This document shows, in pieces, positions 4,048 to 20,881 of a stretch of 64,000 bases of DNA. The translations under genes were made by a program, and so were the position numbers. The notes beneath the pieces were generated by a model. That model saw only the letters and a program-made list of their open reading frames with translations, had not been told where the DNA came from and searched no databases. Position 1 is the first letter of the stretch. Each line of letters begins with the position of its first letter. The stretch spans positions 62,772 to 126,771 of the forward strand of contig CAWANG010000035.1 of the NCBI GenBank assembly GCA_963783175.1, in the 5' to 3' direction. The stretch is from an uncultured Alphaproteobacteria bacterium. GTDB taxonomy: Bacteria > Pseudomonadota > Alphaproteobacteria > Rhizobiales > Beijerinckiaceae.

Positions 4048-4060
4048 GGAACTACCTCCT

Positions 4061-5410
4061 TCATCTTGTCGCGGTTAAGAAGTCTTCGGGGAGTTCGTGG
4101 GCGGTTTTCGACCACACGATTGGCCGCGTCGCGAAGGCGGACTCTCCGAGGAAGGTTTTCCACGCGCGCCAGACCGCGGCCATGTTCACGTAAAGAGCAA
4201 CCGGCCAGCGCAGCGCTATGCCGAGCGGCTCATAATAGCCATACACACGATGGCAGGCGTCGAGCCGCACGAAATAGCGCAGCGCCAGAAACCCGAGGTT
4301 GATGCCGAGTGAGACCGACAGCAGATCCTGAACCTCTGGCGAAGCCATAGCCGGGTCGATCACTCCGAAAAAAACCAGCGCCAGGAAGATGAGCGATATC
4401 GGCGGCAGGAAACTGGTGAGGATGCCCTTGCGATCTCGCATAAAGAAGTAGCGATCCCACACATCGCCCTCCCATCCGAGCTTGCGTGTCGCCTCAAAGT
4501 TGATGCCGTAGACCCATCGGGTCTTCTGCTTGATCGAAGCCGCCAGTGATTTCGGGAAGAACTCTCGCGTGGCGACGTGATCGAGCCCATGTTCTTCTTG
4601 GGAGGAAACTGCCGCAAAAATGGCCTTAAAACCAGCGCGCTTTGCCTCGACGCCAAGGATGTAGTCCTCAGTGACACACCCAGTCATCAGCACATTGCCG
4701 CGCGTGCGTACAAAGTGCTCGATGAGACGTCTTGTCATGCACGTGCCGACCCCGGCCGACGGGATCGTGGCGCCCAATGCATGCCGCACGATCATTTCCC
4801 GGGTATGGCGTTCGGCAAACTCATCCATATAAGTCGCCGCGACCATTGAGCGGTGGGCGGATTTAAGCGAGAAAACCGGTACCTGGATAAAGTCGTGATC
4901 CGCCGCATGGGCTGCGTAGACTTCGAACGTACGCGGATCGATTACGTCCTCGCTGTCGTGCAGGACGGCGAGGTCGGGCGCGTCCGGCGCGCCATAGACC
5001 TGCCGAAACATCTCGTTGAGCAATTGACCCTTGGATGTGGGGCCCGCTAGCGTGTTGACGATCACTCGGACACGGTCCGGATGCTTCTTGGCGAGCTCCA
5101 TCGCCACGTCACAGGTCGCGGTGTCGTTTGGATAAACGCCAAGGTAGAGCCGCACCGTGGGAGTTGTGATGCGCGCCAGGTTGCCCTCGACCATCCGGTG
5201 GAGCACGTCCTCTTCGCGCCAGTTGGCGACGAACACTCCGATGCTCGGCTTATCGGTTTTCGAGGCGTGTTCGCTAGCAAACGATGAATGGGCGATCCCG
5301 AACGCCAACGCGTCGATCAGAGCGTCGTCGAAAGAGGAAAGGTTGATCAGCGCGCTCGTGCAGAGCATCGAGTTAATCAGGAAATCGTTCACGATGCTAA
5401 TCCCGGCCAA
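4061..5410 (-). CDS. GT2 glycosyltransferase, NfrB-like catalytic domain without the C-terminal MshEN domain
   Basis: GPTSKGQLLN, LHDSEDV, YMDEFAE, PSAGVG, TEDY, REFFP...KQKTRW..GI (QxxRW), RDRKG, C-terminal TM helices and WSKTAH; protein stops at 449 aa. Confidence 0.85.
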   Translation of the reverse strand: MAGISIVNDFLINSMLCTSALINLSSFDDALIDALAFGIAHSSFASEHASKTDKPSIGVFVANWREEDVLHRMVEGNLARITTPTVRLYLGVYPNDTATCDVAMELAKKHPDRVRVIVNTLAGPTSKGQLLNEMFRQVYGAPDAPDLAVLHDSEDVIDPRTFEVYAAHAADHDFIQVPVFSLKSAHRSMVAATYMDEFAERHTREMIVRHALGATIPSAGVGTCMTRRLIEHFVRTRGNVLMTGCVTEDYILGVEAKRAGFKAIFAAVSSQEEHGLDHVATREFFPKSLAASIKQKTRWVYGINFEATRKLGWEGDVWDRYFFMRDRKGILTSFLPPISLIFLALVFFGVIDPAMASPEVQDLLSVSLGINLGFLALRYFVRLDACHRVYGYYEPLGIALRWPVALYVNMAAVWRAWKTFLGESAFATRPIVWSKTAHELPEDFLTATR

Positions 5411-6557
5411 AGGATTTTTGGCTTGACGCCGTAGACCCTTCAGTCAGACGAATTGGCTCCTTCGCTTTCGACCCCTCTAGGGTCGCGGCGCCAAAGAGGC
5501 GACCCAGCGCGGAGCGAGTCTGGTCAAGCGCGGATTCGATCACGCCGACACGACAATCGGTCGCGAAACACGTCGTTATCTGGACGCGTTGATCCACCGG
5601 GAGCTCATTGGAATCCAGCAGGTCGATACGCACCAATCGTCCGCGCTCAAGCATCCGGTTGGGCGCCTGAAGGTCGTTCGGCAGAGTCTGGGCAAGAGGC
5701 AGGACACGGTCGATTCGGCCATTCAAAACCGCGTTTCGTGTCCTGACGCCAACATTCTGCCCCTCAGAGACCTCGAAGACATAGGCGTCCGGGACATAGG
5801 CGAGCACGAACCTCTTCCCAGTGAAGATGTCCGCGATGCCGCCGGTTCCCGTCGACACCGCCTGGCCGACGGCCGCAACAGACCCCCCGATGTCGCCGCT
5901 GACCGGGGCGTAGAGGGCCCCATCTTCGTAGGTGCTCATCAACTCGTCATAGGCAGTAGCGGCCTGCGCGAGCGCAGCGCGGTCAGCGTCCAATTCGACG
6001 GACAAAGACCCCTGCTCCGCCTGCAAGCTCGCGGCATGTTCGCGAGCCAAAAGGGAAGCCGACGTCATTTCTTGCACCGACTTGTTGAGTGTGAGGCCGC
6101 TCGCCCGCGCCTGATCGAGGTCGTTCAAAAAGGCGGCGGTTTGCGTCGCGCTCGACTTGGCCAGTGGGAGCGTGTCGGCAATGACCTGTCGTCGAGCTTG
6201 GAGTTCCCCGATCTTGCCCATCAGGCGCGCCTTTTCGGCGGCGAGGTCTGCAAGCGTCCGGCCGATCGCGACGGATTTCACAATCGCGATCTTTTGGCCC
6301 TTCTCCACGTGGTCGCCTGGGCGCACCAGGACCTGCGCCACTCGTCCCTCGAAGGCGGGCGCGACAGCCACTCGGTCGCGCATAACATAGCCATCGGCGC
6401 GCAACAGGACGCCCGAGAGGCCTCCTTGCAAATAGAAGACCGTACCGCCAATTGCGGAAACGAGCAGGCCGCCGTACAGCGCCAAGCGCTGAATACGCTT
6501 CCAGCTGACGCGACTGGCGCGCAGCTCTCCAGAATTGCGAATAGTCTGGTCAGTCAT
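5397..6557 (-). CDS. HlyD/membrane-fusion-family periplasmic adaptor
   Basis: Single N-terminal TM, lipoyl half motif VAPAFEGRVAQVLVRPGDHVEKGQKIA, coiled-coil hairpin, second half LYAPVSG; overlaps the GT2 start by 14 bp. Confidence 0.85.
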   Translation of the reverse strand: MTDQTIRNSGELRASRVSWKRIQRLALYGGLLVSAIGGTVFYLQGGLSGVLLRADGYVMRDRVAVAPAFEGRVAQVLVRPGDHVEKGQKIAIVKSVAIGRTLADLAAEKARLMGKIGELQARRQVIADTLPLAKSSATQTAAFLNDLDQARASGLTLNKSVQEMTSASLLAREHAASLQAEQGSLSVELDADRAALAQAATAYDELMSTYEDGALYAPVSGDIGGSVAAVGQAVSTGTGGIADIFTGKRFVLAYVPDAYVFEVSEGQNVGVRTRNAVLNGRIDRVLPLAQTLPNDLQAPNRMLERGRLVRIDLLDSNELPVDQRVQITTCFATDCRVGVIESALDQTRSALGRLFGAATLEGSKAKEPIRLTEGSTASSQKSFGRD

Positions 6558-6683
6558 TTCAGTCCCGCCGTCGTAGAGTTCGAAAACCGCTTGTCGACAG
6601 CTCCGCTGGACGGTCGCGACCTAAGATGGTTCCCGTTGGTTGCACGAGTCGCTGTGGCAGCGCTCGCAAGATGACAGTCACCT

Positions 6684-6699
6684 TGCAGGGTTCGTGCCA
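6684..6699 (-). promoter_or_regulatory. Sigma-54 (-24/-12) promoter for the adaptor-GT2-wecB operon
   Basis: Minus strand TGGCACGAACCCTGCA versus consensus TGGCACG-N4-TTGCW, correct GG-N10-GC spacing, about 125 bp upstream of ATG 6557. Confidence 0.7.
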
Positions 6700-6989
6700 C
6701 GGATGGGACGCCCTTTGCCAAAGCCGCGTCATGCTCACCGTCGCTCGGCCCGAACGCCGCGCGAAACAGGGCCGCTTCGTGCCGTTTCGTTTAAGGTTAT
6801 GGGGGACGAGCGGCTCGGATAAGGCCGGCATCTTGCATTGCGATTATTGCCAAATGCGAATCGTTATTGGCGAAAAGCGACATTCGAACGTCAGCCGAAA
6901 GCGTCTGGTATTAAATCGACTGAGACCGCCCTAGTGAGGAGGCACACGCCGTTGCCCGCGGATTGAGGCGAGAAAGAGAAGGCGCGACG

Positions 6990-7265
6990 ATTGCTTTCGA
7001 TAATCAGAATATCGTGCTATTGTGCCTCATATCGAATGGATCGGAATCGCTGCCCGGGCGCGAGAGGAGCGCCGCGCAGTATATTTTTTAACAGCGAGCG
7101 GTTCGCCTGATGGGGATTTAGGGCCTAAGCCCTTGAGAACTTTGAATCGGCGGCAGGAAAAGGCATTTGGATTCCCTTCCGCTGGATTTGGATTCTCTTC
7201 CGCTGGGTTTTGATTTCCTTCCGCCCGAATTTGGATTCCCTTCCTTCGGCTTGGAAACCTTTCCG
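6990..7265 (-). repeat. Dispersed ~250 bp element, copy C (five ~21-bp units, core, second block)
   Basis: ttgga/tttga at 7167, 7188, 7209, 7231, 7251; core (minus) aatccaaatgccttttcctgccgccgattcaaagttctcaagggcttaggcc; second block (minus) cacaatagcacgatattctgattatcgaaag. Confidence 0.8.
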
Positions 7266-7274
7266 GCGGCCCGC

Positions 7275-8753
7275 TCAGTCCGGCGCCTTGCCGAACGGGA
7301 TGCCGTTGACCATCAGCGACCGGTCGGGGTTGAGTTCGACCAGCCAGCTGAGGCTGCCGTCGCTTTCGCTTTTTCCCAGCCCCTTGGCCAAGGCGAGGGC
7401 GGGCATGACCTTGGCGGCGATGTCGGGCCCCAGGGCCTTGACTGCCGCCATCGTCTTGTCGAAACCGCGCATGTGAACGGTCAATGCGCCGGTAGGTTTG
7501 CGGTGATCGAAACGAATGACGCCGGTAAAGTCGGCGTCGACCGCGGGCGCGATGACATGCGACGGCGCAATTTCGACCCGGACCGGACCAGCGCTCAATA
7601 GGGCCGCCTCAACCTTGTCGGCGTCCTGGTCAGTCATCACATCGCCGTCGCCCTGCAAGTTCAGGGCGTCGATCCACGTATTCGCCGCCGCGGTCAGGTC
7701 GATGCCTTTGACCGTCGCCGCCACGTCGATCTTCGACGGCGTCAAGTCGCCTCCTCCGGGCGGGAGCAGCCCGACCGGCAAGCTCAGTCCCTCAGCCGAG
7801 ACCCCCAGGCTGATCGAGCTCTGCGGCCCCGCGTTGGCCGCGCCGAGCTGATATTTCGCGTCTGTCAGGGCAATCGCGCCAATCGACGCGGCGACGAAGG
7901 TCTTCTGTGCTTCAATGCCTTCGGCGAACCTGAGGCCGGGGGCGGTCAGCTCTTTGAGCAGGCCCTTCAACTCCGCCTCGTGGGCGGCAAGATCGGCGCG
8001 CGCCGGGTGAGAAGCCACCAGGCCCCATAGCTCGAACGCCTTGAGGCTTTTGAACCCGTCGACGCCGACATCGATCAGCGCCTTGTCCGACCGCCCGCTG
8101 ACGTTGACCGGAGCGTCATTCCCCCCAACCCCGGTCGCTTTGAACCCGATGTCGGAAATGTCCTCCTTCACCACCGTTGAAACCGAGCCGTCGGTGCCGA
8201 GGGTGGTCGTGACGTTCTCCTGAACGGCGCCGAATTCGGCCGCCTGCTCGAGCTTTGGCGTATGAATCAGCAGAGTTCCCTTGTCCACGCTCGCCGAACC
8301 GCCGAGAAGCCAGGCGATCGCCGGACTGATCAGCGCGGTCGAGCGGAAATTCGTCAGTTCGACGCTGCCGTTCGCTCCCTCGGAATGAAAAACGATGCGG
8401 GGAAGCGAGTCCATCATGAGCCGCCAATTGCCGTCATCCTGTTCGACGGCCTTGTAGACGATGGTCGCCGGATCGTATGACGCGCCCGTCTCCTGGAGGA
8501 GCGCGTTGAGCGCGCTGAGGTCGGCCGAGATGAGATAGTCGGCGCCCTCCGGCGTCACCGTCACGAGGGGGGACGCCCCGGCCTGCGCCGCGGGCAAATA
8601 ATTGGCGATCAGGGTTCTGAGCGCGTCCGCGCCCTCGGGCGTGGCTGGCCGGTCGGCCGCAAGCGCGGGAATCGCCCACAGCGCCGCCGCGGCCAGCGGC
8701 GCGAGCGCGAAACGCCGACGCGAACGGCTCGGGCGCAGTCGTATGGAGGGCAT
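7275..8753 (-). CDS. Hypothetical exported protein
   Basis: Long ORF with host-like codon usage and signal-peptide-like N terminus (RRRFALAPLAAAALWAIPALAA); alternative TTG start at 8783. Confidence 0.8.
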   Translation of the reverse strand: MPSIRLRPSRSRRRFALAPLAAAALWAIPALAADRPATPEGADALRTLIANYLPAAQAGASPLVTVTPEGADYLISADLSALNALLQETGASYDPATIVYKAVEQDDGNWRLMMDSLPRIVFHSEGANGSVELTNFRSTALISPAIAWLLGGSASVDKGTLLIHTPKLEQAAEFGAVQENVTTTLGTDGSVSTVVKEDISDIGFKATGVGGNDAPVNVSGRSDKALIDVGVDGFKSLKAFELWGLVASHPARADLAAHEAELKGLLKELTAPGLRFAEGIEAQKTFVAASIGAIALTDAKYQLGAANAGPQSSISLGVSAEGLSLPVGLLPPGGGDLTPSKIDVAATVKGIDLTAAANTWIDALNLQGDGDVMTDQDADKVEAALLSAGPVRVEIAPSHVIAPAVDADFTGVIRFDHRKPTGALTVHMRGFDKTMAAVKALGPDIAAKVMPALALAKGLGKSESDGSLSWLVELNPDRSLMVNGIPFGKAPD

Positions 8754-8873
8754 TAGGCGGCCTATTTGGTTCGGCGAGGACAATCCGAGTTTGCGCGAGC
8801 CTACTCCGATTCTCCGCCGCCGCGCGACAAATACCGCCTATGCGCGTTCGGCGGCGGCTCGTCGGCGTCGCTC

Positions 8874-9779
8874 TCAGCGAGCCGGCAATGCGGCCGGCGA
8901 ATGGCTTCTCGGCGCTTGCGCCTTGGCGACGCCGGCCTTCACCGCCTCCTGCACCTTTTCGAACGCGCGCACCTCGATCTGCCGCACGCGCTCGCGCGAC
9001 ACGCCAAATTCGGCCGACAGCTCCTCGAGCGTAATCGGCTCCTCGGCGAGCCGCCGGGCCTCGAAAATGCGCCGCTCGCGCGGGTTGAGGACGGTCAACG
9101 CGCTGCGCAGCGCGCCCATGCGGGCGTCCGATTCCTCGCGGTCGGCAAGTTGAGATTCCTGATCGGCGCTTTCATCGACGAGCCAGTCCTGCCACTCGCC
9201 TTCGCCGCCGTCGCGCAGCGGCGCATTGAGCGAGGCGTCGCCGCCGAGGCGCCGGTTCATGTCAATGACGTCCTGCTTGCCGACGCCAAGCCGCTTCGAG
9301 ATCGATTCGACCTGATCGTCGCGCATGTCGCCTTCCTCGAGCGCCGAAATCCGGCTCTTGGCCTTGCGCAAATTGAAGAACAGCTTCTTCTGGCTGGCCG
9401 TGGTGCCCATCTTCACCAGCGACCACGAGCGCAGGATGTATTCCTGGATTGACGCGCGAATCCACCACATGGCGTAAGTCGCGAGCTTGAAGCCCTTGTC
9501 CGGCTCGAAGCGCTTGACCGCCTGCATCAGGCCGACGTTGCCCTCGGAAATCACCTCGCCGATCGGCAGACCGTAGCCGCGATAGCCCATGGCGATCTTG
9601 GCCACCAGCCGCAAATGCGAGGTGACGAGCTTGTGCGCAGCCTCGCGATCGCCGTGCTCGCGCCAGCGCTTGGCGAGCATGTATTCCTCTTGCGGCTCCA
9701 GCATCGGGAACCGCTTGATCTCTTGCAAATAGCGAGCAAGTCCCGATTCGCCCGCAATGATGGGAAGCGATGCGGCCAT
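8874..9779 (-). CDS. rpoH: RNA polymerase sigma-32 factor
   Basis: RpoH box QKKLFFNLRKAK, region 2 LVTSHLRLVAKIAMGYRGYGL, region 4 GVSRERVRQIE. Confidence 0.97.
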   Translation of the reverse strand: MAASLPIIAGESGLARYLQEIKRFPMLEPQEEYMLAKRWREHGDREAAHKLVTSHLRLVAKIAMGYRGYGLPIGEVISEGNVGLMQAVKRFEPDKGFKLATYAMWWIRASIQEYILRSWSLVKMGTTASQKKLFFNLRKAKSRISALEEGDMRDDQVESISKRLGVGKQDVIDMNRRLGGDASLNAPLRDGGEGEWQDWLVDESADQESQLADREESDARMGALRSALTVLNPRERRIFEARRLAEEPITLEELSAEFGVSRERVRQIEVRAFEKVQEAVKAGVAKAQAPRSHSPAALPAR

Positions 9780-9943
9780 GTTTTCCTCTGATGGGAGCCC
9801 GGTTCCATGCCGTCTCCGTCGGCGCTATGGCCGGATGGACATATTGTGGTCGAGCAAGCGTGGCCGAATAAGGGCCGAGCCTAGTCAGCTATTCGCAGCC
9901 AATATGAAATTGTTTCAGCGGCGCGGAGGCCGAACAAAGGGCG

Positions 9944-11032
9944 TCAGACTGCCGACGCGGCTCGTAACGCATTGAGCAGATGCGAAAAATCTTCCGGCGG
10001 CGAACTCTCGAAGCGGAGTTTCTCGCCAGTGGCCGGATGTTCGAAACCCAATACCGAAGCATGCAAAGCTTGGCGGCCGAGTTCGGCCAGCGCGGCCTTG
10101 GCGGCCTCGCCGAGACGGGCCGCCTTGGTCTTGAACCCCGCGCCGTAGACCGAATCACCCAGGAGCGGATGACCGCTCGAGGCCATGTGGACGCGAATCT
10201 GATGGGTCCGTCCGGTCTCGAGCCGGCAGGCGATGAGGCTCGCCGAACCGAAAGCCTCCTTAAGCCGCCAATGGGTCGTGGCCTGGCGGCCGCGCTCCTC
10301 GGCGATCGCCATTTTTTCCCGATGGCGCGGATCACGGCCGATCGGCGCCGCGACCTTCCCGGCGATCGCGTCGAAGCGGCCCCAAACGAGCGCCAAATAT
10401 TCGCGCTCGAGCGAGCCGGTGCGGCCGTGGTCGGCGAAGAGCTCGGAGAGCCCCCGATGCGCCGCATCCGTCTTGGCGACGACGAGCATCCCCGAGGTGT
10501 CCTTGTCGAGCCGATGCACGATTCCCGGCCGCCTGACCCCGCCGACGCCTGAGAGGCTCGCCCCGCAGTGGCGGATCAACGCGTTGACCAGTGTGCCGGC
10601 CGGATGTCCCGGCGCCGGATGGACAACGAGCCCGGCCGGCTTGTCGATCACGATCAGATGCTCGTCCTCGTAAACGACGGCAAGCGGCAGATCTTCGCCG
10701 GCGATCGGCAATTCCTCCGCGGACGGCGCTTCAAAGGCGATGCGCGCGCCCTCGACGAGCCGCAGCGAGGGATCGCGCGCAACCTGCCCGTCGACGCTCA
10801 CTTCGCCGGCCTCGATCAGGGCCTTGAGCCGGGTGCGCGACAGCGCGACGCGGCGCACGGCCGCCGCGCCGCCCAAGAAACGGTCGAGCCGCTCGCCCGC
10901 GCCCGCCGCATCGACGTCGAAGACCTGCGGCCCTGACGGCGCGGCGAGGGGCTGGGGAGCCGTTGCGGGCGGCGGCGCGAGTTCGGGCTCGCCTGCGGCG
11001 CTCCAGGCGCGGCGTTTGGCCTTGGCGTTCAT
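9944..11032 (-). CDS. RluA-family pseudouridine synthase (RluD-like)
   Basis: S4 domain, DKPAGLVVHP, IVHRLDKDTSG, LETGRTHQIRVH. Confidence 0.93.
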   Translation of the reverse strand: MNAKAKRRAWSAAGEPELAPPPATAPQPLAAPSGPQVFDVDAAGAGERLDRFLGGAAAVRRVALSRTRLKALIEAGEVSVDGQVARDPSLRLVEGARIAFEAPSAEELPIAGEDLPLAVVYEDEHLIVIDKPAGLVVHPAPGHPAGTLVNALIRHCGASLSGVGGVRRPGIVHRLDKDTSGMLVVAKTDAAHRGLSELFADHGRTGSLEREYLALVWGRFDAIAGKVAAPIGRDPRHREKMAIAEERGRQATTHWRLKEAFGSASLIACRLETGRTHQIRVHMASSGHPLLGDSVYGAGFKTKAARLGEAAKAALAELGRQALHASVLGFEHPATGEKLRFESSPPEDFSHLLNALRAASAV

Positions 11033-12018
11033 GCCCGCTCCCGCCGGCGCGCCCGTACCGCGGCCTCGGCGGCGGGCGGGGCCACGAGCGCTCCGAGCGC
11101 GGCGACGATCGCCTCCACGTCCGGACGTGGCCTGGCTTCGTGGGCGTCAAGACCGCGCCGCATCGCCGCCACATGGGCCGGCGTGGCGCCGCAACAGCCG
11201 CCGATGATGCTGGCGCCGCAATCGACGGCGAGCCCTGCGTAGGTCGCCATGAGCTCCGGAGTGCCGGAATAGTGGATATGCGCCCCGTGCCATTGCGGCA
11301 CGCCGGCATTGGCCTTGGCAATGAGCGGCGCGCCCGGTCGCGCCGCGCTCATGGCGAGAGTCGCGGCCAAGAGATCGGAGGCGCCGACGCCGCAATTCGC
11401 GCCATAGGCTACCGGCGCCGGCTCGAACGCTTCGACCAGGGCGCCGAACGCGGCGGGCGCGAGGCCCATCATCGTGCGGCCGGCGGTGTCGAAGCTCGCG
11501 GTGATCGTATAGGGGAAGCCGCACTTGGCCGCCGCCCGCGCCGCGGCGCGGATTTCCTCGGCCGCCGACATGGTCTCGATCCAGGCGACGTCGGCGCCGC
11601 CTTCGCGCAGGCCTTCGATCTGTTCGGAGAAGACGTCGACCGCCTCGTCTTCGCTCAACGGTCCGAGCGGAGCGATGAGGTCGCCGGTCGGTCCGACCGA
11701 TCCGGCGACGACGACGGGTCGCCCGGCGCTGTCGGCGACGTTGCGAGCGTTTTGGGCGGCGAGACGGTTGAGTTCGCGCGCCCGGGCCTCGAGGCCGTGC
11801 AGCATCAGTCGGCGACGATTGGCGCCGAAGCTGTTGGTCAGAATGATGTCGGCGCCGGCATCGACGAAAGCCCGATGCAGGGTCTGGGTTCGGTCGGGAT
11901 GGACCGCGTTCCAAAGCTCCGGGCTGTCGCCGGAGGTCAGTCCCATGGCGAAGAGGTTGGTGCCGGTCGCGCCGTCGGCAAGCAGCGGCCGGCCTTCGGT
12001 GAGTAGGGTTTGCAACAT
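11029..12018 (-). CDS. Homocysteine S-methyltransferase family protein (betaine-homocysteine methyltransferase-like)
   Basis: LLADGATGTNL, ILTNSFGAN, GSVGPTG, GANCGVG, IAKANAG, IIGGCCG; start set to ATG 12018. Confidence 0.9.
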   Translation of the reverse strand: MLQTLLTEGRPLLADGATGTNLFAMGLTSGDSPELWNAVHPDRTQTLHRAFVDAGADIILTNSFGANRRRLMLHGLEARARELNRLAAQNARNVADSAGRPVVVAGSVGPTGDLIAPLGPLSEDEAVDVFSEQIEGLREGGADVAWIETMSAAEEIRAAARAAAKCGFPYTITASFDTAGRTMMGLAPAAFGALVEAFEPAPVAYGANCGVGASDLLAATLAMSAARPGAPLIAKANAGVPQWHGAHIHYSGTPELMATYAGLAVDCGASIIGGCCGATPAHVAAMRRGLDAHEARPRPDVEAIVAALGALVAPPAAEAAVRARRRERA

Positions 12019-12097
12019 GTCGGGCTCTCTTGGCGCTTGGCGCGGCGCAACTACCCGCGAGGTAAGCGCCTTTGCGGCTCCGCGCAAGGCGACGAAC

Positions 12098-12757
12098 TCA
12101 AGCGGCGGCCCGGATTGCCTTGATGTTGTCGGAATAGCTCTTGGGATCGCCTTCGAATACGGCCGAGCCCGCAACGAACACGTTCGCGCCGGCCCGCGCC
12201 AGAAGCGGCGCAGTCTCCGCCGCCACGCCGCCATCGACCTCGATCATGATGTTGCGGTCGCCGACCATGCGCTTCACCCGCGCGATCTTGTCGAGCATCG
12301 CCGCAATGAACGCCTGGCCGCCAAAGCCCGGATTGACGGTCATGACGAGGATAGTGTCGAGCCGGTCGAGCACATATTCGATCGCGCTCTCCGGCGTTCC
12401 AGGATTGATCGCTACGCCCGCCTTCTTGCCGAGCCTGCGGATTTCCTGCAGCGAACGGTCGAGATGCTTCGTCGCTTCCGCATGGATCGTGATGTGATCG
12501 GCGCCCGCCTTGGCGAAGGCTTCGAGATAGGGATCGCAAGGTTCGATCATCAGGTGGCAGTCGAAGGGCTTGTTGGTATGCGGCCGCAATGCCGCAACAA
12601 CCGGCGGGCCGAAGGTGATGTTGGGGACGAAATGGCCGTCCATCACATCGAGATGGATCCAGTCGGCGCCGGCCTCGGCGACCGCGCGCACCTCCTCGCC
12701 GAGCCTGGCGAAATCCGCCGACAGAATTGACGGCGCCATGATCACCGCGTTGGTCAT
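12098..12757 (-). CDS. rpe: Ribulose-phosphate 3-epimerase
   Basis: [36 protein letters not shown]; RBS AAGGAG before ATG 12757. Confidence 0.95.
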
Positions 12758-12991
12758 GGCGTTCTCCTTTGCGATCAAGCTTGCGGGGCCGATAGCGACT
12801 TCAACCTATCGATGGTCGGCCGTTCGCCTCGAGTCAACGCGGAAGGCGCGGGGTTGTGGTCATTACGGGTCGAGCCCGCTTTCTCTATCTGCATTTGTGA
12901 TATCAATCTAACAACTCGTTCGTAGAGTTTAAATCGGTTGCCTTCGGCCCGGAAGCCGCCTATGGAACGCGCCTTCTCAAGGGAATTCTCG

Positions 12992-13901
12992 ATGGCGAGC
13001 GAATTGCCGGCTCATCTCCGGCGGCTGGAGGCCGAGTCGATTCACATCATGCGGGAAGTCGTCGCCGAAATGCGCAATCCCGTCATGCTGTATTCGATCG
13101 GCAAGGACTTCGAGCGTGATGCTCCACGTGGCGATGAAGGCGTTCCATCCCGCCAAGCCGCCGTTCCCGCTGCTCCACGTTGACACGACGTGGAAGTTCC
13201 GCGAGATGATCGCATTCCGCGACGAAACGGCGCGCCGGCTCGGCCTCGATCTCATCGTCCACATCAACGAGGACGGGGTCAGGCGCGGCATATCGCCGAT
13301 CGCCTCGGGCTCGCAACTCCACACCCAAGTGATGAAGACCGAAGCGCTGCGGCAAGCGCTCGACCGCGGGCGGTTCGACGCCGCGTTCGGCGGCGCGCGG
13401 CGGGACGAGGAGAAGAGCCGCGCCAAGGAGCGCATCTTCTCCCACCGCTCGGCCGCGCATGCGTGGGACCCACGCAACCAGCGCCCCGAACTGTGGCGTC
13501 TCTTCAACACCCGCCTGCGCGAAGGCGAATCGATGCGAGTCTTCCCGCTCTCGAACTGGACCGAGCTCGACATCTGGGAATATGTGCTGGCCGAGGCCAT
13601 TCCGGTCGTGCCGCTCTATTTCTCCAAGCTTCGCCCGGTGGTCGAGCGCGCGGGCGCGCTCATCATGGTCGACGACGAACGGCTGCCGCTCATGCCGGGC
13701 GAACAGCCGGCAATGCGGCGGGTGCGCTTCCGCACCCTCGGCTGCTATCCGCTTTCGGCAGCAATCGAGTCGGAGGCCGACACCCTCCACGACATCGTCG
13801 CCGAAATGCGCAAGACCACCACGTCCGAGCGTCAAGGGCGCCTCATCGATTCAGACGAAGCCTCGTCGATGGAAAAGAAGAAGCGCGAAGGGTACTTCTG
13901 A
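12992..13901 (+). CDS. cysD: Sulfate adenylyltransferase subunit 2, interrupted by a +1 frameshift near 13109 (probable sequence error)
   Basis: [22 protein letters not shown]...YSIGKD then frame switch to SVMLH...[16 protein letters not shown]...RFRTLGCYP; removing one T from GACTTCG restores GKDSSVM. Confidence 0.92.
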
Positions 13902-15772
13902 TGGCCATCGCTGAGACAGAGGCGACCCTCCCGACCCTGCGTCTCCTGACCTGCGGGTCGGTCGACGACGGCAAGTCGACGCTGATCGGGCGATTGCTGT
14001 ACGAGAAGAAGCTGATCTTCGACGACCAGCTCTCGGCGCTCGAACGCGACTCGAAGAAATTCGGCACGACCGGGGACAGCGTCGACTACGCGCTCCTGGT
14101 CGACGGGCTCGAAGCCGAGCGCGAGCAGGGCATCACCATCGACGTCGCATATCGCTACTTCGCCACCGCCCGGCGCTCGTTCATCGTCGCCGATGCGCCC
14201 GGCCACGAGCAATATACCCGCAACATGGCGACCGGCGCGTCCAACGCCGATCTCGCGATCGTGCTTGTCGACGCGCGCAAGGGGCTGCTCACCCAGACCC
14301 ATCGCCATTCGATCATCGTGTCGCTGCTTGGCGTGCGCGACGTCGTGCTCGCGGTCAACAAGATCGATCTCGTCGACTTCAGCGAGACGGCGTTTCGCCG
14401 GATCGAGGCCGACTACCGCAAGTTCGCCGAGACGCTCAGCTTCCGCTCGCTTATCGCGCTGCCGATCTCTGCCCGTTACGGCGACAATGTCTCCTCTTTG
14501 AGCCGGCGCACGTCGTGGTACGAAGGGCCGCATCTGCTCGATCATCTCGAGCGAATCGAGGTCGAGGAGGATCGCCGCAGCGCGCCGTTTCGCCTGCCGG
14601 TGCAATGGATCAACCGCCCGCATCATGATTTTCGCGGCTTCGCCGGCACGATTCCAAGCGGACGGGTGGCGCGGGGCGACGCGATCGTGGCCGCCAATTC
14701 CGGCCTCCGGAGCACTGTCGCAAGCCTCCTCGTCGGCGATCGCGAGGTCGAGGCCGCCGAGGCCGGCGACGCGGTCACGCTCACTCTCGCCGACGAGATC
14801 GACATCGCCAGGGGCGACGTGCTGTCGAAGCCTGAGAGCCGCCCGGAGGTCGCCGATCAGTTCACAGCGCACATGATCTGGATGAGCGCCGAACCGATGC
14901 TGCCCGGCCGATCCTACCTGCTCAAGATCGGCGGGCGGACGACGCCCGCTTCGGTTACCGAGCTCAAGCACCGCCTCGATGTCAACAATTTCGACAAGCT
15001 CGCGGCCAAGCATCTCGATCTCAACGAGGTCGGCTTCTGCAACGTCGCGACCACCATGCCGGTCGCCTTCGATCCTTACTGCGACAATCGCGTGACCGGC
15101 GCCTTCATTCTCATCGATCGCGCGACCAATGAGACCGCGGCGGCGGGGATGATCGCCCATGGGCTCAGGCGCGCGACCAACGTGCACCGGCATGGCGCGA
15201 GTGTCGGGCGCGAGGCGCATGCGGCGCAAATGCATCAGAAGCCGGCCATCCTGTGGTTCACCGGGCTCTCGGGGGCGGGAAAATCGACAATCGCCAATCT
15301 GGTCGAGGTCAAGCTTCATGCGCGCGGCGTCCATACCGCGCTCCTCGACGGCGACAACGTCCGCCACGGCCTCAACAAGGACTTGGGCTTCACCGCCGCC
15401 GACCGGGTCGAGAACATCCGCCGGGTCGGCGAGGTCGCGAGGCTGATGACCGACGCCGGGCTCATCGTGCTCTGCTCGTTCATTTCGCCGTTCCGGGCGG
15501 AGCGGCGGCTCGTCCGCGACACCGCGGCTCGGGATGAGTTTCTCGAGGTTTTCGTCGAGGCGCCGCTTGAGACCGTCATCGCCCGCGATACCAAGGGCCT
15601 GTACCGGCGGGCGCTGGCCGGCGAGATCAAGAACTTCACTGGCGTCGACCAGCCGTACGAGGCGCCCGAGGCGCCAGAACTCATTCTCAATTCAGCCGCC
15701 GAAACGCCGGACGCCCTCGCCGACCGGGTCATCGCCGAGCTTGAACGGCGCGGGCGGATCGCGCGGCTGTGA
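13901..15772 (+). CDS. cysNC: Bifunctional sulfate adenylyltransferase subunit 1 / APS kinase (CysNC/NodQ-type)
   Basis: [34 protein letters not shown], then [12 protein letters not shown] and [10 protein letters not shown]; TGATG overlap with cysD. Confidence 0.95.
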
Positions 15773-15789
15773 CCCCCGAGCGCCGGCGA

Positions 15790-16038
15790 GGCGGCGCAAC
15801 GATTCCCAAGCCGCGGGCGCCATTATCCAAATTCCCCGCAATGGATTCCAAGGCCAGCGCAACGAAATCCAAATCGAACTTTCTTCCGCGGATTGAGCTT
15901 TTTCAGCGGGTTGCGCCGACACCGGACCCGAAATCCTCACTCCCTCGGCTCCGCCCGCTCAGCCGCCGCGCTGGCGGACGGCAGCCGCTTCTCAGGAGCG
16001 TCGACACTAGCAGAAATTCTGATTTTCTGGAAGAAAAT
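15790..16038 (+). repeat. Dispersed ~250 bp element, copy A
   Basis: ccaa at 15806, 15827, 15848, 15869 (21-bp period); core aaatccaaatcgaactttcttccgcggattgagctttttcagcgggttgcgcc; second block gacactagcagaaattctgattttctggaag at 16003. Confidence 0.85.
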
Positions 16039-16244
16039 GTTGGCGAAACTCACGAGCGGGCCTGGAAGCCGATCCGGCGCTCGCTCGCTGGAAATCGAAA
16101 TCGGTGCGAAATCGGCGCGATTTTCGGGATCGATGACACATGCGTAGATTGCCGGAAGTGTAAAAGGGGCGCAGATTGCGAGCCAAGCCCGAGGCCACCC
16201 GGGCAATGCCGGTCAAAACCAGCAACTCGCCTCGAGGAGGGAAC

Positions 16245-18792
16245 ATGGCGAATCCGCCCCCGCTTCCGCCGATTGTCAGTGGGCCGGTCTACACCACCAG
16301 CAAGCAGGTGCTTGTCGACAGCGTGCTGCCGAACGCGAAGGTGACGGTCTATAACGACTCCGCCAGCACCCACGCGGTAGGAATGGCGACATCAACGAGT
16401 CCCGGCGCGATCTGGGTTCCATTGACCGGAACCATCGCGCATGGGCAACCGATCACCGCGCGCCAGCAATACACGGGTTCGGACCCGAAGATCTTGGTGA
16501 CCGGCCTGAGCCCTCCTTCCACCTTGCCCGTTCCGGTTTTACTGCCGCCCACGCCGCTGCCCGCTCCCATTTTCGCCTCCGGATTATGCACGTGCATGGA
16601 CTGGGTCTACATCGACGGATTGATCTCCGGGGCGACGCTGACCATCACGATGGGGGCGACCACCATGGTCGCCGCTGCGCTCGTGACCCAGACGCCCCAA
16701 TGGTTCCAACTCGCCGCGCATACGATCCCTTCGGGTTCGGTGCTGACGGCCCAACAGAATATCGGCTCCGCGACGAGTTCCTGCCGCGCAAAGCAGTCCG
16801 ATCCCGGTGGCGCCCGCTCTCGGCACGCCGGCGATCGCACCGACGCCCATCGACTGCGACACGAGCATGAACATCTCCAGCGTGCAGCCTGGCGCAGACC
16901 TCAAGATTATCAATGGCGCCAACCAGTATTCAGCCACCAATCCATCGAGCTCCTATAATCTATACGATTTGTCTCCGCCTTTACTGCCCGGACCGTCGTC
17001 CGTGGAACAGTATTTCCCGAGGTGCAAAGAGCAGCAACCGAAAACTTTATCATTCACCGTCAAGAAACACGCGCCGCCAACGCCGCAGGTCACATACAGC
17101 CCATGCTCCGACGTCAACATTTTAATTGTTTCCGACTTCGTCACGGGCGAAATCTTCACGATCGAAGTGGCCTACAGCACGACGGCGGGGCCGCAAAAGA
17201 AATCTCTTGGATCGTCCGGCGTATCCAGCTCGGGCCAAATCGGCTTGCCGAAAAATTGGTACCCTTCGGGGGCGGTCGGCCCGGTTTCGCTTTTGATCGA
17301 AGGACTGCTTTGCGACCTTGCGAGCCCGAGCCCGGCCACGGTTCCCGTCGTGCAACCCCCGGGTCCTTACCCCGCGCCGACGGTGCAGCGGCCGCTCTAC
17401 GATTGCGCCACCTCGGTGTTTGTCCGGGGAGCGAATCCCGGATGCCTGATTCAAGTGTTCGCCAAGGGTTCGCCGCCGACGCCACGCTCGAACCCGGTGG
17501 TCGCGACGACGGCGAACTTCCCGGTCCGCCTGTTGTGGCCGCTCGTCACCGGAGAACAGATCTTCGTGCAGCAGCTGGGCTGCGGCGCCAGCGCCAAGCC
17601 GGCCGCCGCGGCCAAGGTCCTGGCCCCGCCCGCCCTGCCGCTCCCCACGGTGGCCGGCAGCTATGTGCTGACCACCGCTGCATCGGTCCTGGTGAACAAT
17701 GTCGTACCCGGAGCGCAGGTTGCGCTGTTCGTAAACCATCATGCGCGCAACGCGCCGGTAGACAGCATCGGAGCGGAGACCGGTCCGCCGACAGGGTCGC
17801 CGGCGAGGATTCAAGTGAGCGTGCCGGTGGGATGGCCGCCGCTGGCGGCGGGCGACATCCTCACTGCCGGACAGACGCTCTGCGGCGTGAACGAGTTTCC
17901 CACCGACAAGGGCGGCGTAAAGGCCCAGACGCCGGTCCCCCCTCCAGGCCTGGGCCCGGGGGAGCCCCGCGGGGGCCTTGGCAGCAACAACAACTATTTT
18001 ATGTTCACGCCCCTTGCCAGCGGCGGCTGCGCGAACTTGATAAACGTATCCGTGACGATCGCCGTTACGCAACCCATAGTTTGGGCGTCAACGGGGCCTT
18101 CAACTCCGCCAGGGGCGCCGTTCGCCCCCCCAGGGTTCAGTTTTCAGTTGAATTGTTATTCGCCGACACAAACCTCCTCGAATCCCTTGTATCCTGCTTG
18201 GCAGCAATACATAATAAATCTGTGGTCTGCGCAGCTTTGGGGGGCTATAAATACCTGGCACACTTTTAGCACTCCTGTCATCTTGCCGGGCCCGAACGAA
18301 TACAAGACAACTTTGGGCCCAGCGCTGCCAAGCAACACAATACCCGCCGGCTATACTCTGACGATCAAACTGGGCAACAACTCGAGCGGCAACGTCAACA
18401 GCGTTACTTGGGTTGTGAACGGGGTATCATACACCCCATCGCCGCCCACGATACCAGGGCTGCTAGCGGCGAATGGGTTATCGGCGACCGACGTGGCGCC
18501 AATCGTCGCATTCACACTGGACCTGGTCGGGCCCGTGAACGGAGAGAGCGCGGTGCTCTTATCCGGCGCGGGAACGATTACCTATTCGGCGAAAAGCCCT
18601 CTTACGGTAACGAATCAGGAGCCCACCCAATGCGTGGAGCAGCTGACCGGATTCACCCTGGAAACAGCCACGAGCTCCTATGGCGTTTTGCCGGCGAACC
18701 CCGGCAACCCGTTTTCGCAGTCTTTCGCTGCGAGCGCCACAACGCCGCTGATCCGCGCATTGCGAGGACCTCCTCTCGTTCGAGGGCGATGA
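16245..18792 (+). CDS. Orphan ~848 aa protein: six Ig-like beta-rich repeats plus a C-terminal beta-sandwich domain (possible G1/thermopsin-like peptidase fold); +1 frameshift near 16779
   Basis: Strong RBS GAGGAGG before ATG 16245; ORFs 16176..16958 and 16807..18792 join if one T is removed from AGTTCCT, and the repeat pattern continues across the junction. Confidence 0.75.
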
Positions 18793-18837
18793 GCCAAAGC
18801 TGGATACATGGGATAGGCGCGGTCAACCGGCGCCAAT

Positions 18838-18861
18838 CGTCATTGCGGGGAAATCGGCGAC
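18838..18861. repeat. Left part of a GTCATTGCG-type REP arm
   Basis: cgtcattgcggggaaatcggcgac; first 10 nt are the exact inverse of cgcaatgacg at 20845-20854. Confidence 0.4.
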
Positions 18862-18943
18862 ACATGCGCTTTATTCCCGCCGGTCAGGCGCGCGCTCGAG
18901 GGCCAAGGGCTGGCGTAGGCGAGGGCGCCTCTCCGCCGCCAGC

Positions 18944-19185
18944 CCGCGCAGCAATATCAAAATCGGCCGCGACAATTTCCAAACCCGCCGCAACAGAATC
19001 AAAGGCCGGCGGAACAAAATCCAAATCGGACTTTCTTCCGCGGATTGAGCTTTTTCAGCGGGTTGTGCCCGATTCCGGCCCAGAAATCCTTTTCTCCCCC
19101 GCCTGAGCCCGCTGCCCGCCGCAAGGCCCGGACCATTTCTCAATAGCGGCGACAATAGCACGGATTCTGATTTCCAGGAACAAAT
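18944..19185 (+). repeat. Dispersed ~250 bp element, copy B
   Basis: 21-bp units start at 18952, 18973, 18994, 19015; core aaatccaaatcggactttcttccgcggattgagctttttcagcgggttgtgcc nearly identical to copy A; second block gacaatagcacggattctgatttccaggaa at 19151. Confidence 0.85.
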
Positions 19186-19208
19186 TTGTCCAAGAACTTT
19201 GGCGAGGA

Positions 19209-19430
19209 ATGGCCAACAGCCCCGTTGTTATCCTCGGTCAGCTGCTCCCGCCGGGTGCAGCGGTGGTCTGTGAAGCCGAGCCCCGCAAAGCCGGTGAGCG
19301 ACAACGCCAGACGCGGCGGTTTCGGCTTGGCTTTGCCGTCGGACTGGCGCAGTCTGTCGGTCCAACCGGCGGCCATTTTGTGAATGTCGGTCGAAAGATT
19401 ACCGCAAAGTTTTTTGGGGAGGAGCGTTGA
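19209..19430 (+). CDS. Possible small hypothetical protein (73 aa)
   Basis: GAGGA immediately upstream of the ATG; stop lies 1 nt before the next ATG; no recognisable motif. Confidence 0.25.
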   Translation: MANSPVVILGQLLPPGAAVVCEAEPRKAGERQRQTRRFRLGFAVGLAQSVGPTGGHFVNVGRKITAKFFGEER

Positions 19431-19431
19431 C

Positions 19432-20751
19432 ATGCCTAGCCCAGCATCGATTGCATGGCGTCGTTCGATCCTGGCCGGCGACGACGAAATCTGGATCGTA
19501 ATGACGAATTCGGCGGGTTCGATAATGAGCTATTGGGTCGAAGTTCCCGATCCAGTGGCTTCTCCCCAGCCGTGGAGTGTCCAACAGATTGCAGGACCTG
19601 GATCTGCGAACGTCCCGACGGCCGCCGGTTACGCGCCTGCCATCGCATTCGACCCATTCCCATCGGCGAGGGGGGGCCGAAGGGCGCACGTCGCCGCGGA
19701 TGGACCTAACGGCGTTGTTTACTACCTCACTTACGACAGGCTTGGGGGGCAATGGTACAGTCGAGATGTCTCTGGCGCGACGGGTTCAGTAGTAGGCATG
19801 ACGGTAATGCCAGACGACTACGTGTACATGCTCACGGTCTCGTCCGGCGAAGAGCTGATTGGCTGGTTGGGGGGCTATCTAGACTTTCCGTTCGTCCAGG
19901 TGCCGATTCCCGCGGCCGGCACAACGAACGCTGCGCCGGCTGTCGTCGCCGCCATGGCGGTTCGTTCTGTGAACTCTTCGCAAATCGAGGTGCACGTGGT
20001 CGCCGTACAGCAACCCGGAGCGAACGCGCCGAACATGGACAATGTGCTGATGTATTTCTGGTCAACCTATACTGCGGGATCCTCAGGTGCGGCTGGATCC
20101 TTCGGGCCATGGCAGTCGAACCAGATCTCTATGCCATCTATAGCGGGAACTACTACTGTATATCCAAGCTGGCCAGTATCGATAGCGCTCAGTCTGAACC
20201 CGAACGGCGAGATCATCGTCACTGCACCGGTCGAGACGAAATCTGGCCCATTGAATAAGAGCTATTTGTACTATTTTGTGGCGAATACTCCGGGTTCCAC
20301 ATGGAGGTCCGTAGAGATCAAGGGGCCATCCGGAGGGGGACTCGAAATGTCATCGGGCGGAGTTGCTGTCGATGGCAATGGCACAGCCCACTCTCTCGTA
20401 GTAAGTTCCTTCACCGGGCCGACGGCGCCCGGGGACAGTCAATTTAATCAGCCGTCGCTCACCGATTTCACGCTCGCGCAAGGATCTACAATTGTTGGCA
20501 ATATTCCAGTTGACAACTACCAAGGCGGCTATACGACCGATCCTCTTGATTGGGATGACCTCGCCTGGTCTGGTAACACCTATAGCCTCGGCGGACCAAA
20601 GTTTCCTTATTCGTTAGATATAGTCCCCGGGATGACTGCGCGCGCGAGCGGCGAAGTTGACGTTGCGTTCTGGAACTTCCCCTTCGCCTCAATAGGCTTC
20701 TTTAGCCTTCCTCTTGGAAGCAACCAATGGAACTATACCAAGGTTGGCTAA
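19432..20751 (+). CDS. Orphan hypothetical protein, putative beta-propeller
   Basis: RBS GGGGAGGAG; repeated beta-strand blocks ending in W motifs (QPWSVQQI, GQWYSRDV, GPWQSNQI, STWRSVEI, NQWNYTKV); more A/T-ending codons than flanking genes. Confidence 0.75.
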   Translation: MPSPASIAWRRSILAGDDEIWIVMTNSAGSIMSYWVEVPDPVASPQPWSVQQIAGPGSANVPTAAGYAPAIAFDPFPSARGGRRAHVAADGPNGVVYYLTYDRLGGQWYSRDVSGATGSVVGMTVMPDDYVYMLTVSSGEELIGWLGGYLDFPFVQVPIPAAGTTNAAPAVVAAMAVRSVNSSQIEVHVVAVQQPGANAPNMDNVLMYFWSTYTAGSSGAAGSFGPWQSNQISMPSIAGTTTVYPSWPVSIALSLNPNGEIIVTAPVETKSGPLNKSYLYYFVANTPGSTWRSVEIKGPSGGGLEMSSGGVAVDGNGTAHSLVVSSFTGPTAPGDSQFNQPSLTDFTLAQGSTIVGNIPVDNYQGGYTTDPLDWDDLAWSGNTYSLGGPKFPYSLDIVPGMTARASGEVDVAFWNFPFASIGFFSLPLGSNQWNYTKVG

Positions 20752-20803
20752 ACCTGAGGAATATTCCAAGATAGCCGGCGACACCCCGCCGGGAGCTTGC
20801 TTT

Positions 20804-20854
20804 GGCGACGAAGCGATCGAAACTCTGGATTGCTTCGCTTCGCTCGCAATGACG
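20804..20854. repeat. REP-like element (GCGACGAAGC...TGGATTGCTTCGCTTCGCTCGCAATGACG type)
   Basis: tggattgcttcgcttcgctcgcaatgac at 20826-20853 preceded by partial left arm ggcgacgaagcgatc. Confidence 0.8.
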
Positions 20855-20881
20855 GGGCCCGCGCCGTCGAACGAAGGCCAC

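Follow-up and report, generated by a model that had tools for sequence, protein, structure and literature searches.

Small intergenic repeats that carry an IHF site, such as RIB/BIME-1 and the Correia elements, have been known for decades, and their working is still poorly understood. Short, helically registered repeats next to an IHF site are also a feature of P1 parS and of plasmid iteron origins (pSC101, R6K), in which the phase between the arms matters and the iterons are spaced by 21-22 bp. The ends of Mu, Tn7 and IS10 combine multiple phased binding sites with an IHF site. The RIB/RIP element of E. coli (BIME-1), in the summary of Boccard & Prentki (1993) given in PMC5082802, is ~100 bp long and has two inverted REP palindromes around an IHF site. 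The Correia elements (CREE/NEMIS) of Neisseria carry 26-bp terminal inverted repeats, TA target duplications and outward promoters at their ends (PMC2649163, PMC2229807). In Bradyrhizobium, Br-REP1 and Br-REP2 are short GC-rich palindromes, e.g. CCGGAATCTCGAGATTCCGG (PMC5082802).

The element described here belongs with the small intergenic repeats that E. coli and Neisseria are known for, as a new variant whose parts stand in an unusual order. Three copies lie in the window, by which we mean the whole stretch of 64,000 nucleotides that was analysed. As far as the cited summary describes RIB/BIME-1, the two share a dispersed, intergenic, non-coding mosaic structure with an IHF-consensus site, a location at the 3' ends of transcription units and a high copy number. 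The present element differs in having no REP pair and no second palindrome beyond the core. Its 3-7 direct repeats are phased and come with a single inverted copy; beyond the core there follow a phased spacer of 100-170 bp and a promoter-like block, giving a total of 250-330 bp. Correia elements are likewise small non-autonomous repeats that carry, besides an IHF site, promoter sequences as well as a hairpin able to affect transcripts; they occur in hundreds of copies and their presence varies between relatives (PMC2649163, PMC2229807). In contrast with them, the present element is directional and lacks terminal inverted repeats, and its predicted promoter points inward. Br-REP1 and Br-REP2 are comparable as Hyphomicrobiales repeats that lie in the 3' UTRs of convergent genes, are transcribed on both strands and vary strongly in abundance between related species, whereas they lack the phased arrays, IHF-type core and promoter block (PMC5082802).

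Three copies in the window

An earlier reading made from the sequence alone (the sequence-only reading) had described a dispersed element in three copies, with a 21-bp periodicity, a conserved core and a second conserved block. Sequence and alignment bear this description out at the same positions. Copy 1 is on the minus strand and begins with five ~21-bp units of the GGAAGgGAATCCAAAt type (7165..7265), 10 nt after the TGA of the upstream gene (7277-7275). The units are followed by an inverted arm (GCCTTTTCCTGCCGC, 7150..7164), which pairs imperfectly with the last unit, and by the conserved core (7121..7149), in which the IHF-type motif is TCAA (7136-7133), N4 and TTA (7128-7126). Copy 2, on the plus strand, has four ~21-bp units of the GCGCAACgAAATCCAAAt type (15794..15875) that start 22 nt after the TGA (15770-15772) of an 860-aa gene. 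Its inverted arm and core (GATTGAGCTTTTTCAGCGGGTTGCGCCGAC) occupy 15876..15921, with the motif TCAG (15903-15906), N4 and TTG (15911-15913). Copy 3, also on the plus strand, has four ~21-bp units (18946..19026) and an inverted arm and core at 19027..19072, with TCAG (19055-19058), N4 and TTG (19063-19065).

Tandem Repeats Finder reported two arrays of period 21, one at 7165-7244 with 3.8 copies and 81% matches, the other at 18943-19025 with 4.0 copies and 66% matches. The array at 15794-15875 was too degenerate for the program and was seen in the alignment of the three copies. The cores of the two plus-strand copies are near-identical (ACTTTCTTCCGCGGATTGAGCTTTTTCAGCGGGTTG), and that of the minus-strand copy is recognisably related. 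The second block (block 2), of the form CA(A/C)TAGCA..ATTCTGATT, is present in all three.

A genome-wide family with a fixed order

The genome holds about 150 copies of the core. Iterated nhmmer searches of the whole genome gave 155 core matches and 83 block-2 matches, and because 78 of the 83 are preceded, at 63-184 bp upstream and on their own strand, by a core, the three-part order is a genome-wide property and not one of the three window copies only. The unit motif AATCCAAA occurs 210 times in the genome, as compared with ~38 expected, and the spacings between unit motifs on the same strand peak at 21 (67), 22 (24), 42 (20) and 10 bp (34). The modules follow one another in a fixed order: direct repeats with their inverted copy, core, spacer, block 2. 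The direct repeats recur every 21 bp, or every 10-11 bp in sister subfamilies, and the last of them faces the inverted copy. An inverted repeat was found in 61 of 154 copies and in 2 of 462 shuffles. Between the last unit and the core, distances of 35, 36, 37 and 38 bp are each frequent. A coding heptad repeat is ruled out by the common unit spacings of 22, 20, 10 and 11 bp, which are not multiples of 3, and is also contradicted by these unit-core distances.

Several subfamilies can be told apart by their units (AATCCAAG, TAAACGCTAG and ATGAAAGG types). From one to another, a change of the units is accompanied by a change of the inverted arm, while the core and block 2 stay the same. The best identity between copies is 65-87%; pairs at 97-99% belong to two segmental duplications in which the flanks are shared as well, and no other near-identical pairs and no recent burst of copying were found among the copies in the genome. 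No replication-strand polarity of the copies was seen (27 versus 26) in this genome, whose GC skew is weak. A literature search with the signature words of the element matched only unrelated primer sequences.

The core as a candidate IHF site

The invariant bases of the core are TCAR-N4-TTR, which are the positions of the IHF consensus. In the core profile, the C is found in 151/151 copies, A in 149/151 and R in 151/151, followed after N4 by T in 145/150, T in 149/149 and R in 147/149; the relatedness of the copies means that such counts overstate their independence. The longer form WWTCAR-N4-TTR is present in 120 of 134 anchored copies. As compared with the IHF consensus WATCARnnnnTTR, the second base in the core is T rather than A. 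Both ihfA and ihfB are encoded in the genome, with scores above the curated cut-offs; the two IHF genes lie at G000:C33:48279-48560 and C34:61230-61502. From the match of the core to the consensus we infer that IHF, which bends DNA, is likely to dock there. We also considered the core as a -35 element (TTGAAA on the reverse strand) and rejected it, as the core profile has no TAnnnT hexamer 16-19 nt further on.

Block 2 and its strand

Read on the strand opposite to the units, block 2 has the extended -10 sigma-70-type pattern TTGCGA-N16/17-TGnTAnnnT, aimed at the core. This agrees with the extended -10 class (TTGnnn, 16-18 nt, TGn, TAnnnT), and the TA...T at promoter spacing is present in 57 of 69 block-2 copies. 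Within the TG, T is kept in 48/57 and G in 56/57, and the middle positions of the hexamer are variable. The same logic, TTGnnn-17-TGnTATnnn, is retained in distant species of the genus (G001/G008 variants) with wholly different repeat units.

In copy 1 the predicted promoter is on the plus strand (6983..7023). It has a -35 TTTCGA (6995-7000), a 17-nt spacer containing AATCAGAA, TGC (7015-7017) and a -10 TATTGT (7018-7023), with a predicted start at ~7030 directed towards the core. In copy 2 it is on the minus strand (16000..16040), with a weak -35 TTCCAG (16032-16027), a spacer with AATCAGAA, TGC before the -10 TAGTGT (16009-16004) and a predicted minus-strand start at ~15997. Copy 3 is similar (19148..19190, minus strand), having a weak -35 TCCTGG/TTCCTG (~19180-19174), a spacer with AATCAGAA, TGC before the -10 TATTGT (19157-19152) and a predicted minus-strand start at ~19145. 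Owing to these weak -35 hexamers, all three copies in the window went unflagged in a simple promoter scan.

The sequence-only reading had suggested a mobile promoter. The promoter-like block supports this idea, on the other strand. Forward block 2 (TAGCACGGnnTTCTGA) has no sigma-70 hexamers, and it lacks the sigma-54 GG at -24 and GC at -12 (TGGCAC-N5-TTGC). Since the promoter-like pattern is present only on the strand opposite to the orientation of that reading, it would fire back into the element, and on its sequence block 2 is likely a promoter with this inward direction. Two other identities of block 2 were rejected. Against a recombinase core or dif-like site, the CGATA/TATCG inverted pair is spaced by 15 nt and is missing in subfamily F2, and an inverted copy of the unit is ruled out by the constancy of block 2 where the units change.

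Phasing of the spacer

The distances between the core and block 2 fall into classes of ~104, 114, 125, 136, 148, 159 and 170 bp. The Rayleigh power is 13.9 at 11.3 bp, a value that none of 5000 nulls, uniform or jittered, attained in a test that overstates independence since the copies are related to one another. The length classes are found again in every subfamily. The 11.3-bp steps support a face-of-helix phasing of block 2, a layout like that of a protein-binding platform. The phased units, the IHF-consensus core and these steps agree with the nucleoprotein platform that had been proposed from the three window copies, at least as a predicted layout.

Placement among genes

The copies are intergenic and mostly face the 3' ends of genes. 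On the unit side, 52 flanking genes present their tails and 26 their heads; on the block-2 side the counts are 27 tails and 17 heads, or 89 and 65 with looser gene calls. The copies are generally not upstream of the gene they "point into". In the window, all three copies have a downstream ORF on the same strand, and copies 2 and 3 lie within a variable segment where relatives have a GST gene instead. Clustering of 592 flanking ORFs yielded only large generic families, so that no gene family recurs near the copies and no adjacent rep or par gene recurs among these ORFs. An iteron or Rep association, considered in the sequence-only reading, is thus not borne out: P1 parS and iteron origins are single sites beside a par or rep gene, whereas here there are ~150 chromosomal copies with no associated gene. 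A T-rich tail follows the inverted repeat in 8 of 13 cases in G001/G008; because it does so in only 9 of 70 in this genome, a terminator role is weakly supported here.

Distribution, gain and loss

Members of the family occur only in a single uncultured genus of soil alphaproteobacteria, and their distribution inside it is patchy. The number of pattern matches per species ranges from 0 to 87, and several complete genomes have none. The suspicion that this may be an abundant lineage-specific repeat was therefore correct. The presence of copies differs between species at orthologous sites, with empty sites in G003, G008, G023 and G024 whose flanks are 80-87% identical. At one site common to three species, the inverted-repeat arm, core and block 2 are kept and the rest is unalignable.

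No terminal inverted repeats were found, the left end (GGAAG.GTTTTCCAAAGCC, or what corresponds to it in a given subfamily) not being an inverted copy of the right (..ATTGTCGCTTTTTCTCGCG). No transposase was found beside the copies, and no paired copies and no autonomous or full-length parent were found in the genome. The lack of terminal inverted repeats and transposase, noted for the three copies, is confirmed. Of the suggested non-autonomous mobile element, the gain and loss of copies between species are borne out; terminal repeats, a parent and near-identical copies beyond the segmental duplications were not found. Mobility is seen as gain and loss between species only, since the copies are 65-87% identical and target duplications are unreadable at the identity of the flanks.

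Proposed explanation and its alternatives

Then, what kind of element combines these features? We favor, at a probability of about one in two, a non-autonomous mosaic intergenic repeat that acts mainly at the level of DNA. It would be a module bent by IHF, set in phase with the helix and equipped with a promoter that faces inward, and in kind it would resemble RIB/BIME-1 and the Correia elements. The A-tract direct repeats, 21 or 10-11 bp apart, would form a curved or protein-coated arm ending in the inverted repeat. IHF would bind the core and bend the DNA, and the length of the spacer would keep block 2 facing the same side of the helix. As an extended -10 sigma-70-type promoter, block 2 would send transcription back across the spacer and on into the core and the repeats, giving a short, non-coding or antisense transcript of ~150-300 nt. 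The bent, phased nucleoprotein module would sit at gene 3' ends, where the inverted repeat, with a T-run after it in some subfamilies, probably halts transcription coming from the neighbouring gene. The family would have spread and diversified inside one genus, as other small repeats (RIB/BIME-1, Correia) have. What counts against this explanation is the unusual layout of a promoter with its IHF site 100-170 bp further downstream.

A more speculative proposal, which we regard as unlikely, is that of ~150 chromosome-wide nucleoprotein "knots". The repeat arm and IHF bend would be folded in 11.3-bp register, the in-vivo helical repeat, onto the resident promoter and make a topological barrier or insulator of a new kind at gene ends, with its own transcription setting or reading its state; or else the copies would be a very large family of promoter-bearing RNAs, variable in their 5' part and sharing a constant 3' scaffold.

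The possibility that the RNA is the working part deserves separate attention, doubtful as we find it. The elements would be small RNA genes, with block 2 as promoter, the 100-170 nt spacer as copy-specific 5' body, and the core, inverted repeat and units as a constant 3' scaffold, there to bind a protein or to terminate the RNA. The inward promoter-like block kept across species, the variable part followed by a conserved one and the excess of inverted repeats over shuffles fit this picture, and the Bradyrhizobium 3' UTR repeats are transcribed both ways (PMC5082802). The sequence-only reading had also listed a structured RNA, and here the RNA-specific evidence is negative. No described ncRNA family of Rfam 15 was matched, either at the gathering score in the window or at E<=1 in loci with five or more copies, and RNAalifold gave no consensus structure on either strand. 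The mismatches in the inverted repeats have no wobble bias (24 A.C, 16 G.T, 24 A.G), and the strand difference in folding energy is the same as in shuffled sequence. The 11.3-bp spacer steps fit a DNA helix and not RNA, and no precedent is known for a set of ~150 paralogous sRNA genes.

A MITE-like transposon is similarly improbable in our view. The units and the inverted copy would be sites for a transposase encoded elsewhere, IHF would help to join the ends of the short element and the promoter would be a passenger. The filled and empty orthologous sites, the joint change of units and inverted arm between subfamilies and the patchy distribution over species are all expected from such an element, and phased sites with an IHF site occur also in Correia elements (PMC2649163, PMC2229807). 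Against it stand the missing terminal inverted repeats, recurring neighbour gene and full-length parent, the confinement of near-identical copies to two segmental duplications and the unreadable target duplications. As block 2 and the core are constant while the units change, block 2 is no counterpart of the units at the opposite "end".

Less likely again is selfish DNA that is old and decaying and has no function today, in which the conserved blocks would only reflect shared descent and AT-rich low complexity. The moderate likeness of the copies (65-87%) with no recent burst, and the complete genomes of the genus that lack the element, would suit it. Position-specific conservation (TCAR-N4-TTR; TG-TA...T with a variable middle) where other parts are unalignable, spacer lengths in helical-repeat steps and non-random placement at gene 3' ends would not. 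Finally, a forward regulatory region in which repeats, IHF site and promoter drive an accessory gene downstream of block 2 is very improbable: it has the classical activation-at-a-distance order of array, IHF site and promoter, the same-strand ORFs in the window and the variable segment of copies 2 and 3 in its favor, but forward block 2 has neither sigma-70 hexamers nor the sigma-54 GG/GC, the block-2-side genes are more often tails than heads, and stop codons adjoin the unit side.

Significance

Under the preferred reading of a DNA-bending module with an inward promoter, the ~150 natural variants, with swapped repeat arms, a kept core and promoter and spacers in helical steps, amount to a natural mutagenesis series. 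This series predicts face-of-helix contacts between the IHF-bent arm and the promoter. For uncultured soil Hyphomicrobiales the family has value in annotation, as its copies flag the 3' ends of genes as well as variable loci. The elements also attract transposon insertions and probably add antisense transcription.

Results

The element and its subfamilies

Three dispersed copies of the element had been proposed from the sequence-only reading, and sequence inspection with alignment confirmed all three, at ~6990-7265 on the minus strand and at ~15790-16038 and ~18944-19185 on the plus strand. Tandem Repeats Finder located period-21 arrays at 7165-7244 (3.8 copies) and 18943-19025 (4.0 copies); the array at 15794-15875 is more degenerate, yet alignable with the other two. 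The two plus-strand cores are nearly identical, the minus-strand core is a diverged relative, and the block 2 sequence CA(A/C)TAGCA..ATTCTGATT is found in 3/3 copies. Arrays start 10-22 nt past the stop codon of the upstream same-strand gene (TGA 7277-7275; TGA 15770-15772).

In the 5.68 Mb assembly (64% GC), AATCCAAA occurs 210 times as compared with ~38 expected, and the spacing between unit motifs on one strand has genome-wide peaks at 21, 22, 42 and 10 bp. Iterated nhmmer searches of the genome gave 155 matches to the last unit plus core and 83 to block 2. Since 78 of the 83 lie 63-184 bp downstream of a same-strand core, further copies in the same three-part order do exist across the genome. 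By a crude GC3-based caller, 124 of 134 anchored copies fall outside gene calls.

The family in this genome divides into four subfamilies. F1a has units GCGCAACaAAATCCAAAt, 21 bp apart in 3-6 copies; F1b has units GGAAGGAAAATCCAA, 21-22 bp apart; F2 has CCAAAT/CCAAG units, 10-11 bp apart, plus a palindrome CAAAGGAAATCAAAG..CTTGGATTTCCTTGG; and F3 has units of the CCAAGCAAAACC type. An inverted copy stands opposite the last unit in all four. Inverted repeats scoring at least 8 were found in 61/154 copies versus 2/462 shuffles, with 41 distinct arm 9-mers. The core cCGaATcgaGnCTTTTCAAtGGgTTa follows the inverted repeat, and its near-invariant bases are C (151/151), A (149/151) and R (151/151), then, past four freer positions, T (145/150), T (149/149) and R (147/149). 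The IHF consensus is WATCARnnnnTTR. The invariants TCAR-N4-TTR are the specific part of that consensus, and the core is a predicted IHF site; ihfA and ihfB are both encoded in the genome, above curated cut-offs.

Block 2 and helical register

Read forward, block 2 contains neither sigma-70 hexamers nor sigma-54 GG/GC. The opposite strand reads TTGCGA, then (A/T)AATCAGAA.., then TGn, then TAnnnT. T-A-N3-T follows a 16- or 17-nt spacer in 57 of 69 anchored copies, with TG before it (T 48/57, G 56/57), and the middle bases of the hexamer are variable. Fixed T1, A2 and T6 around a free middle are characteristic of -10 elements, and a preceding TGn places the hexamer in the extended -10 class. Block 2 is a predicted extended -10 promoter on the strand opposite to the units, which would fire towards the core and units. 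The window copies keep TGC-TA(T/G)TGT; because their -35 hexamers are weak, a simple promoter scan flagged none of the three.

In every subfamily, distances between the core TCAA and TTCTGATT cluster near 104, 114, 125, 136, 148, 159 and 170 bp, and the different length classes must derive from separate insertions or deletions. The Rayleigh power is 13.9 at an 11.3 bp period, equalled by 0/5000 uniform or ±5-bp jittered nulls, a test that overstates independence because the copies are kin. The in vivo helical repeat in DNA-looping experiments is 11.0-11.3 bp. The element is thus in helical register throughout, with 11.3-bp spacer steps and 21-bp and 10-11-bp unit spacing, and this whole-element register points to contacts on DNA rather than RNA.

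RNA structure

The register bears on a rival reading, that the element is a trans-acting sRNA family. The structured RNA raised as one option at the outset was not borne out. The sole gathering-score Rfam match within the window is a tRNA gene at 1131-1212 on the minus strand; no element copy in the window matched, and loci with at least five copies gave no match to a described family even at E<=1. RNAalifold found no consensus structure on either strand, the folding-energy difference between strands was the same as for shuffled sequence, and inverted-repeat mismatches had no wobble bias (24 A.C, 16 G.T, 24 A.G). The arms do co-vary between subfamilies, an observation that a DNA palindrome fits as well as a hairpin.

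Distribution and history

The core pattern GNCTTTTCAANGGNTTR matches 43 times in this genome and 0-87 times per species across 27 species of the genus, with 0 in several that are at least 94% complete; outside the genus there are only 0-2 (52 other genera of the family, 16 other families). The exact block-2 pattern is limited to the nearest clade. In two more distant species, G001 and G008, a sister subfamily (extracted loci L143-L152, L154, L157, L158, L160) has the same core GACTTTTCAATGGGTTA, an A/T tract (A-run) and a block-2 variant (TTGnnn-17-TGnTATnnn, AATCAGAA kept). Its units are quite different, being TAAACGC(T/C)AG-type repeats 10-11 bp apart plus a 14-24-bp inverted repeat. A T-run follows this inverted repeat in 8/13 copies, and the two together look like an intrinsic terminator of the upstream gene; in the window's genome (G000) only 9/70 copies have a comparable tail.

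Copies within this genome are 65-87% identical, and the sole 97-99% pairs have common flanks. Two contig pairs of G000 (C6:~4100-8500 and C21:~1500-7300; C12:~39200-41300 and C32:~49500-51600) are 97-99% identical over several kb, element copy and flanking genes included, and are either segmental duplications or unmerged strain variants (contamination 3.6%).

Comparison of filled and empty orthologous sites, as the sequence-only reading had proposed, found empty counterparts for both copies studied on contig C7. The copy at ~122.85k is absent from the congeners G003, G024 and G008, where the convergent stop codons lie 27-57 nt apart. The copy at ~128.24k is common to G000, G003 and G012 and absent from G023 and G024; conservation there is confined to the inverted-repeat arm, core and block 2, the remainder being unalignable, a pattern beside which the rival of decaying junk has to be read. 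A plain MITE is another rival to be set beside these empty sites; the element has no terminal inverted repeats, as had been noted. In the window, 15773-20880 is a variable segment in which copies 2 and 3 alternate with two orphan genes, copy 2 coming first. In G003, G008 and G023 the 860-aa gene that ends directly upstream of copy 2 is followed by a glutathione-S-transferase (GST)-like gene, which is absent here, and synteny picks up again at ~20880. The 860-aa protein has its closest named relatives in uncultured Hyphomicrobiales/Alphaproteobacteria MAGs.

Genomic context

With only the strong calls of the crude GC3-based caller, the unit-side neighbour turns its 3' end towards the element 52 times and its 5' end 26 times; for the block-2-side neighbour the counts are 27 and 17. 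Looser calls gave the same picture. From these counts, the element's place is at the ends of genes, often between two convergent ones, which is also where REP/RIB elements are found. By the same counts, the rival of a forward regulatory region, upstream of the gene pointed into, does not hold in general. No gene family recurs beside the copies. No paired copies were found in the genome, and orientation did not correlate with GC skew (27:26).

A REP-like GC-rich palindrome (..CTTCGTCG..N..CGACGAAGCGATGC..) lies beside an element copy between convergent genes at C7:~122700-122790 (locus L128, ~9700-9790). It is separate from the element, so no fewer than two intergenic repeat systems, unrelated to one another, coexist in G000. 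AT-rich unit arrays are abutted or split in six places by copies of the transposon end GGGGTGTAAGCTCTCCACTATAGGTAGGACACGTTTTTTGCGGACGATTGTGGCAAGTAA, an inverted repeat of Tn3-family-like type beginning GGGG (G000 C14:~8243, C24:~60779, C29:~703, C37:~496022, C37:~514381, C42:~57001); the two on C37 point outward from the halves of a single F3 element, 18 kb apart. A preference for AT-rich targets in a GC-rich genome is the probable reason. At C38:44698-48024 an F2 element is split into halves ~3.2 kb apart by an insertion holding an IS1595-like transposase ORF (C38:46972-47916).

Discussion

These sequences are best read as non-autonomous mosaic repeats akin to RIB/BIME-1 and Correia elements. 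Correia elements contain an IHF site, promoters and RNase III hairpins (PMC2649163, PMC2229807); Bradyrhizobium REPs lie in 3' UTRs and are transcribed on both strands (PMC5082802, which cites Boccard & Prentki 1993 for RIBs). The element's signature words had no match in the literature searched. Because it lacks the REP pair of RIBs, the terminal inverted repeats of Correia elements and a rep or par gene, we class it as a variant of these known kinds that is set apart from each.

The module order and helical phasing imply a predicted IHF-bent nucleoprotein complex with a resident inward-facing promoter. Core and block 2, constant across subfamilies, would be the common machinery. Since the units change between subfamilies while their A-tract phasing is kept, the unit arm may act via curvature or via subfamily-specific proteins. 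We give a probability of about one half to the element being a DNA-level module whose predicted product is a short antisense or non-coding RNA and which would block or end transcription at the 3' ends of genes.
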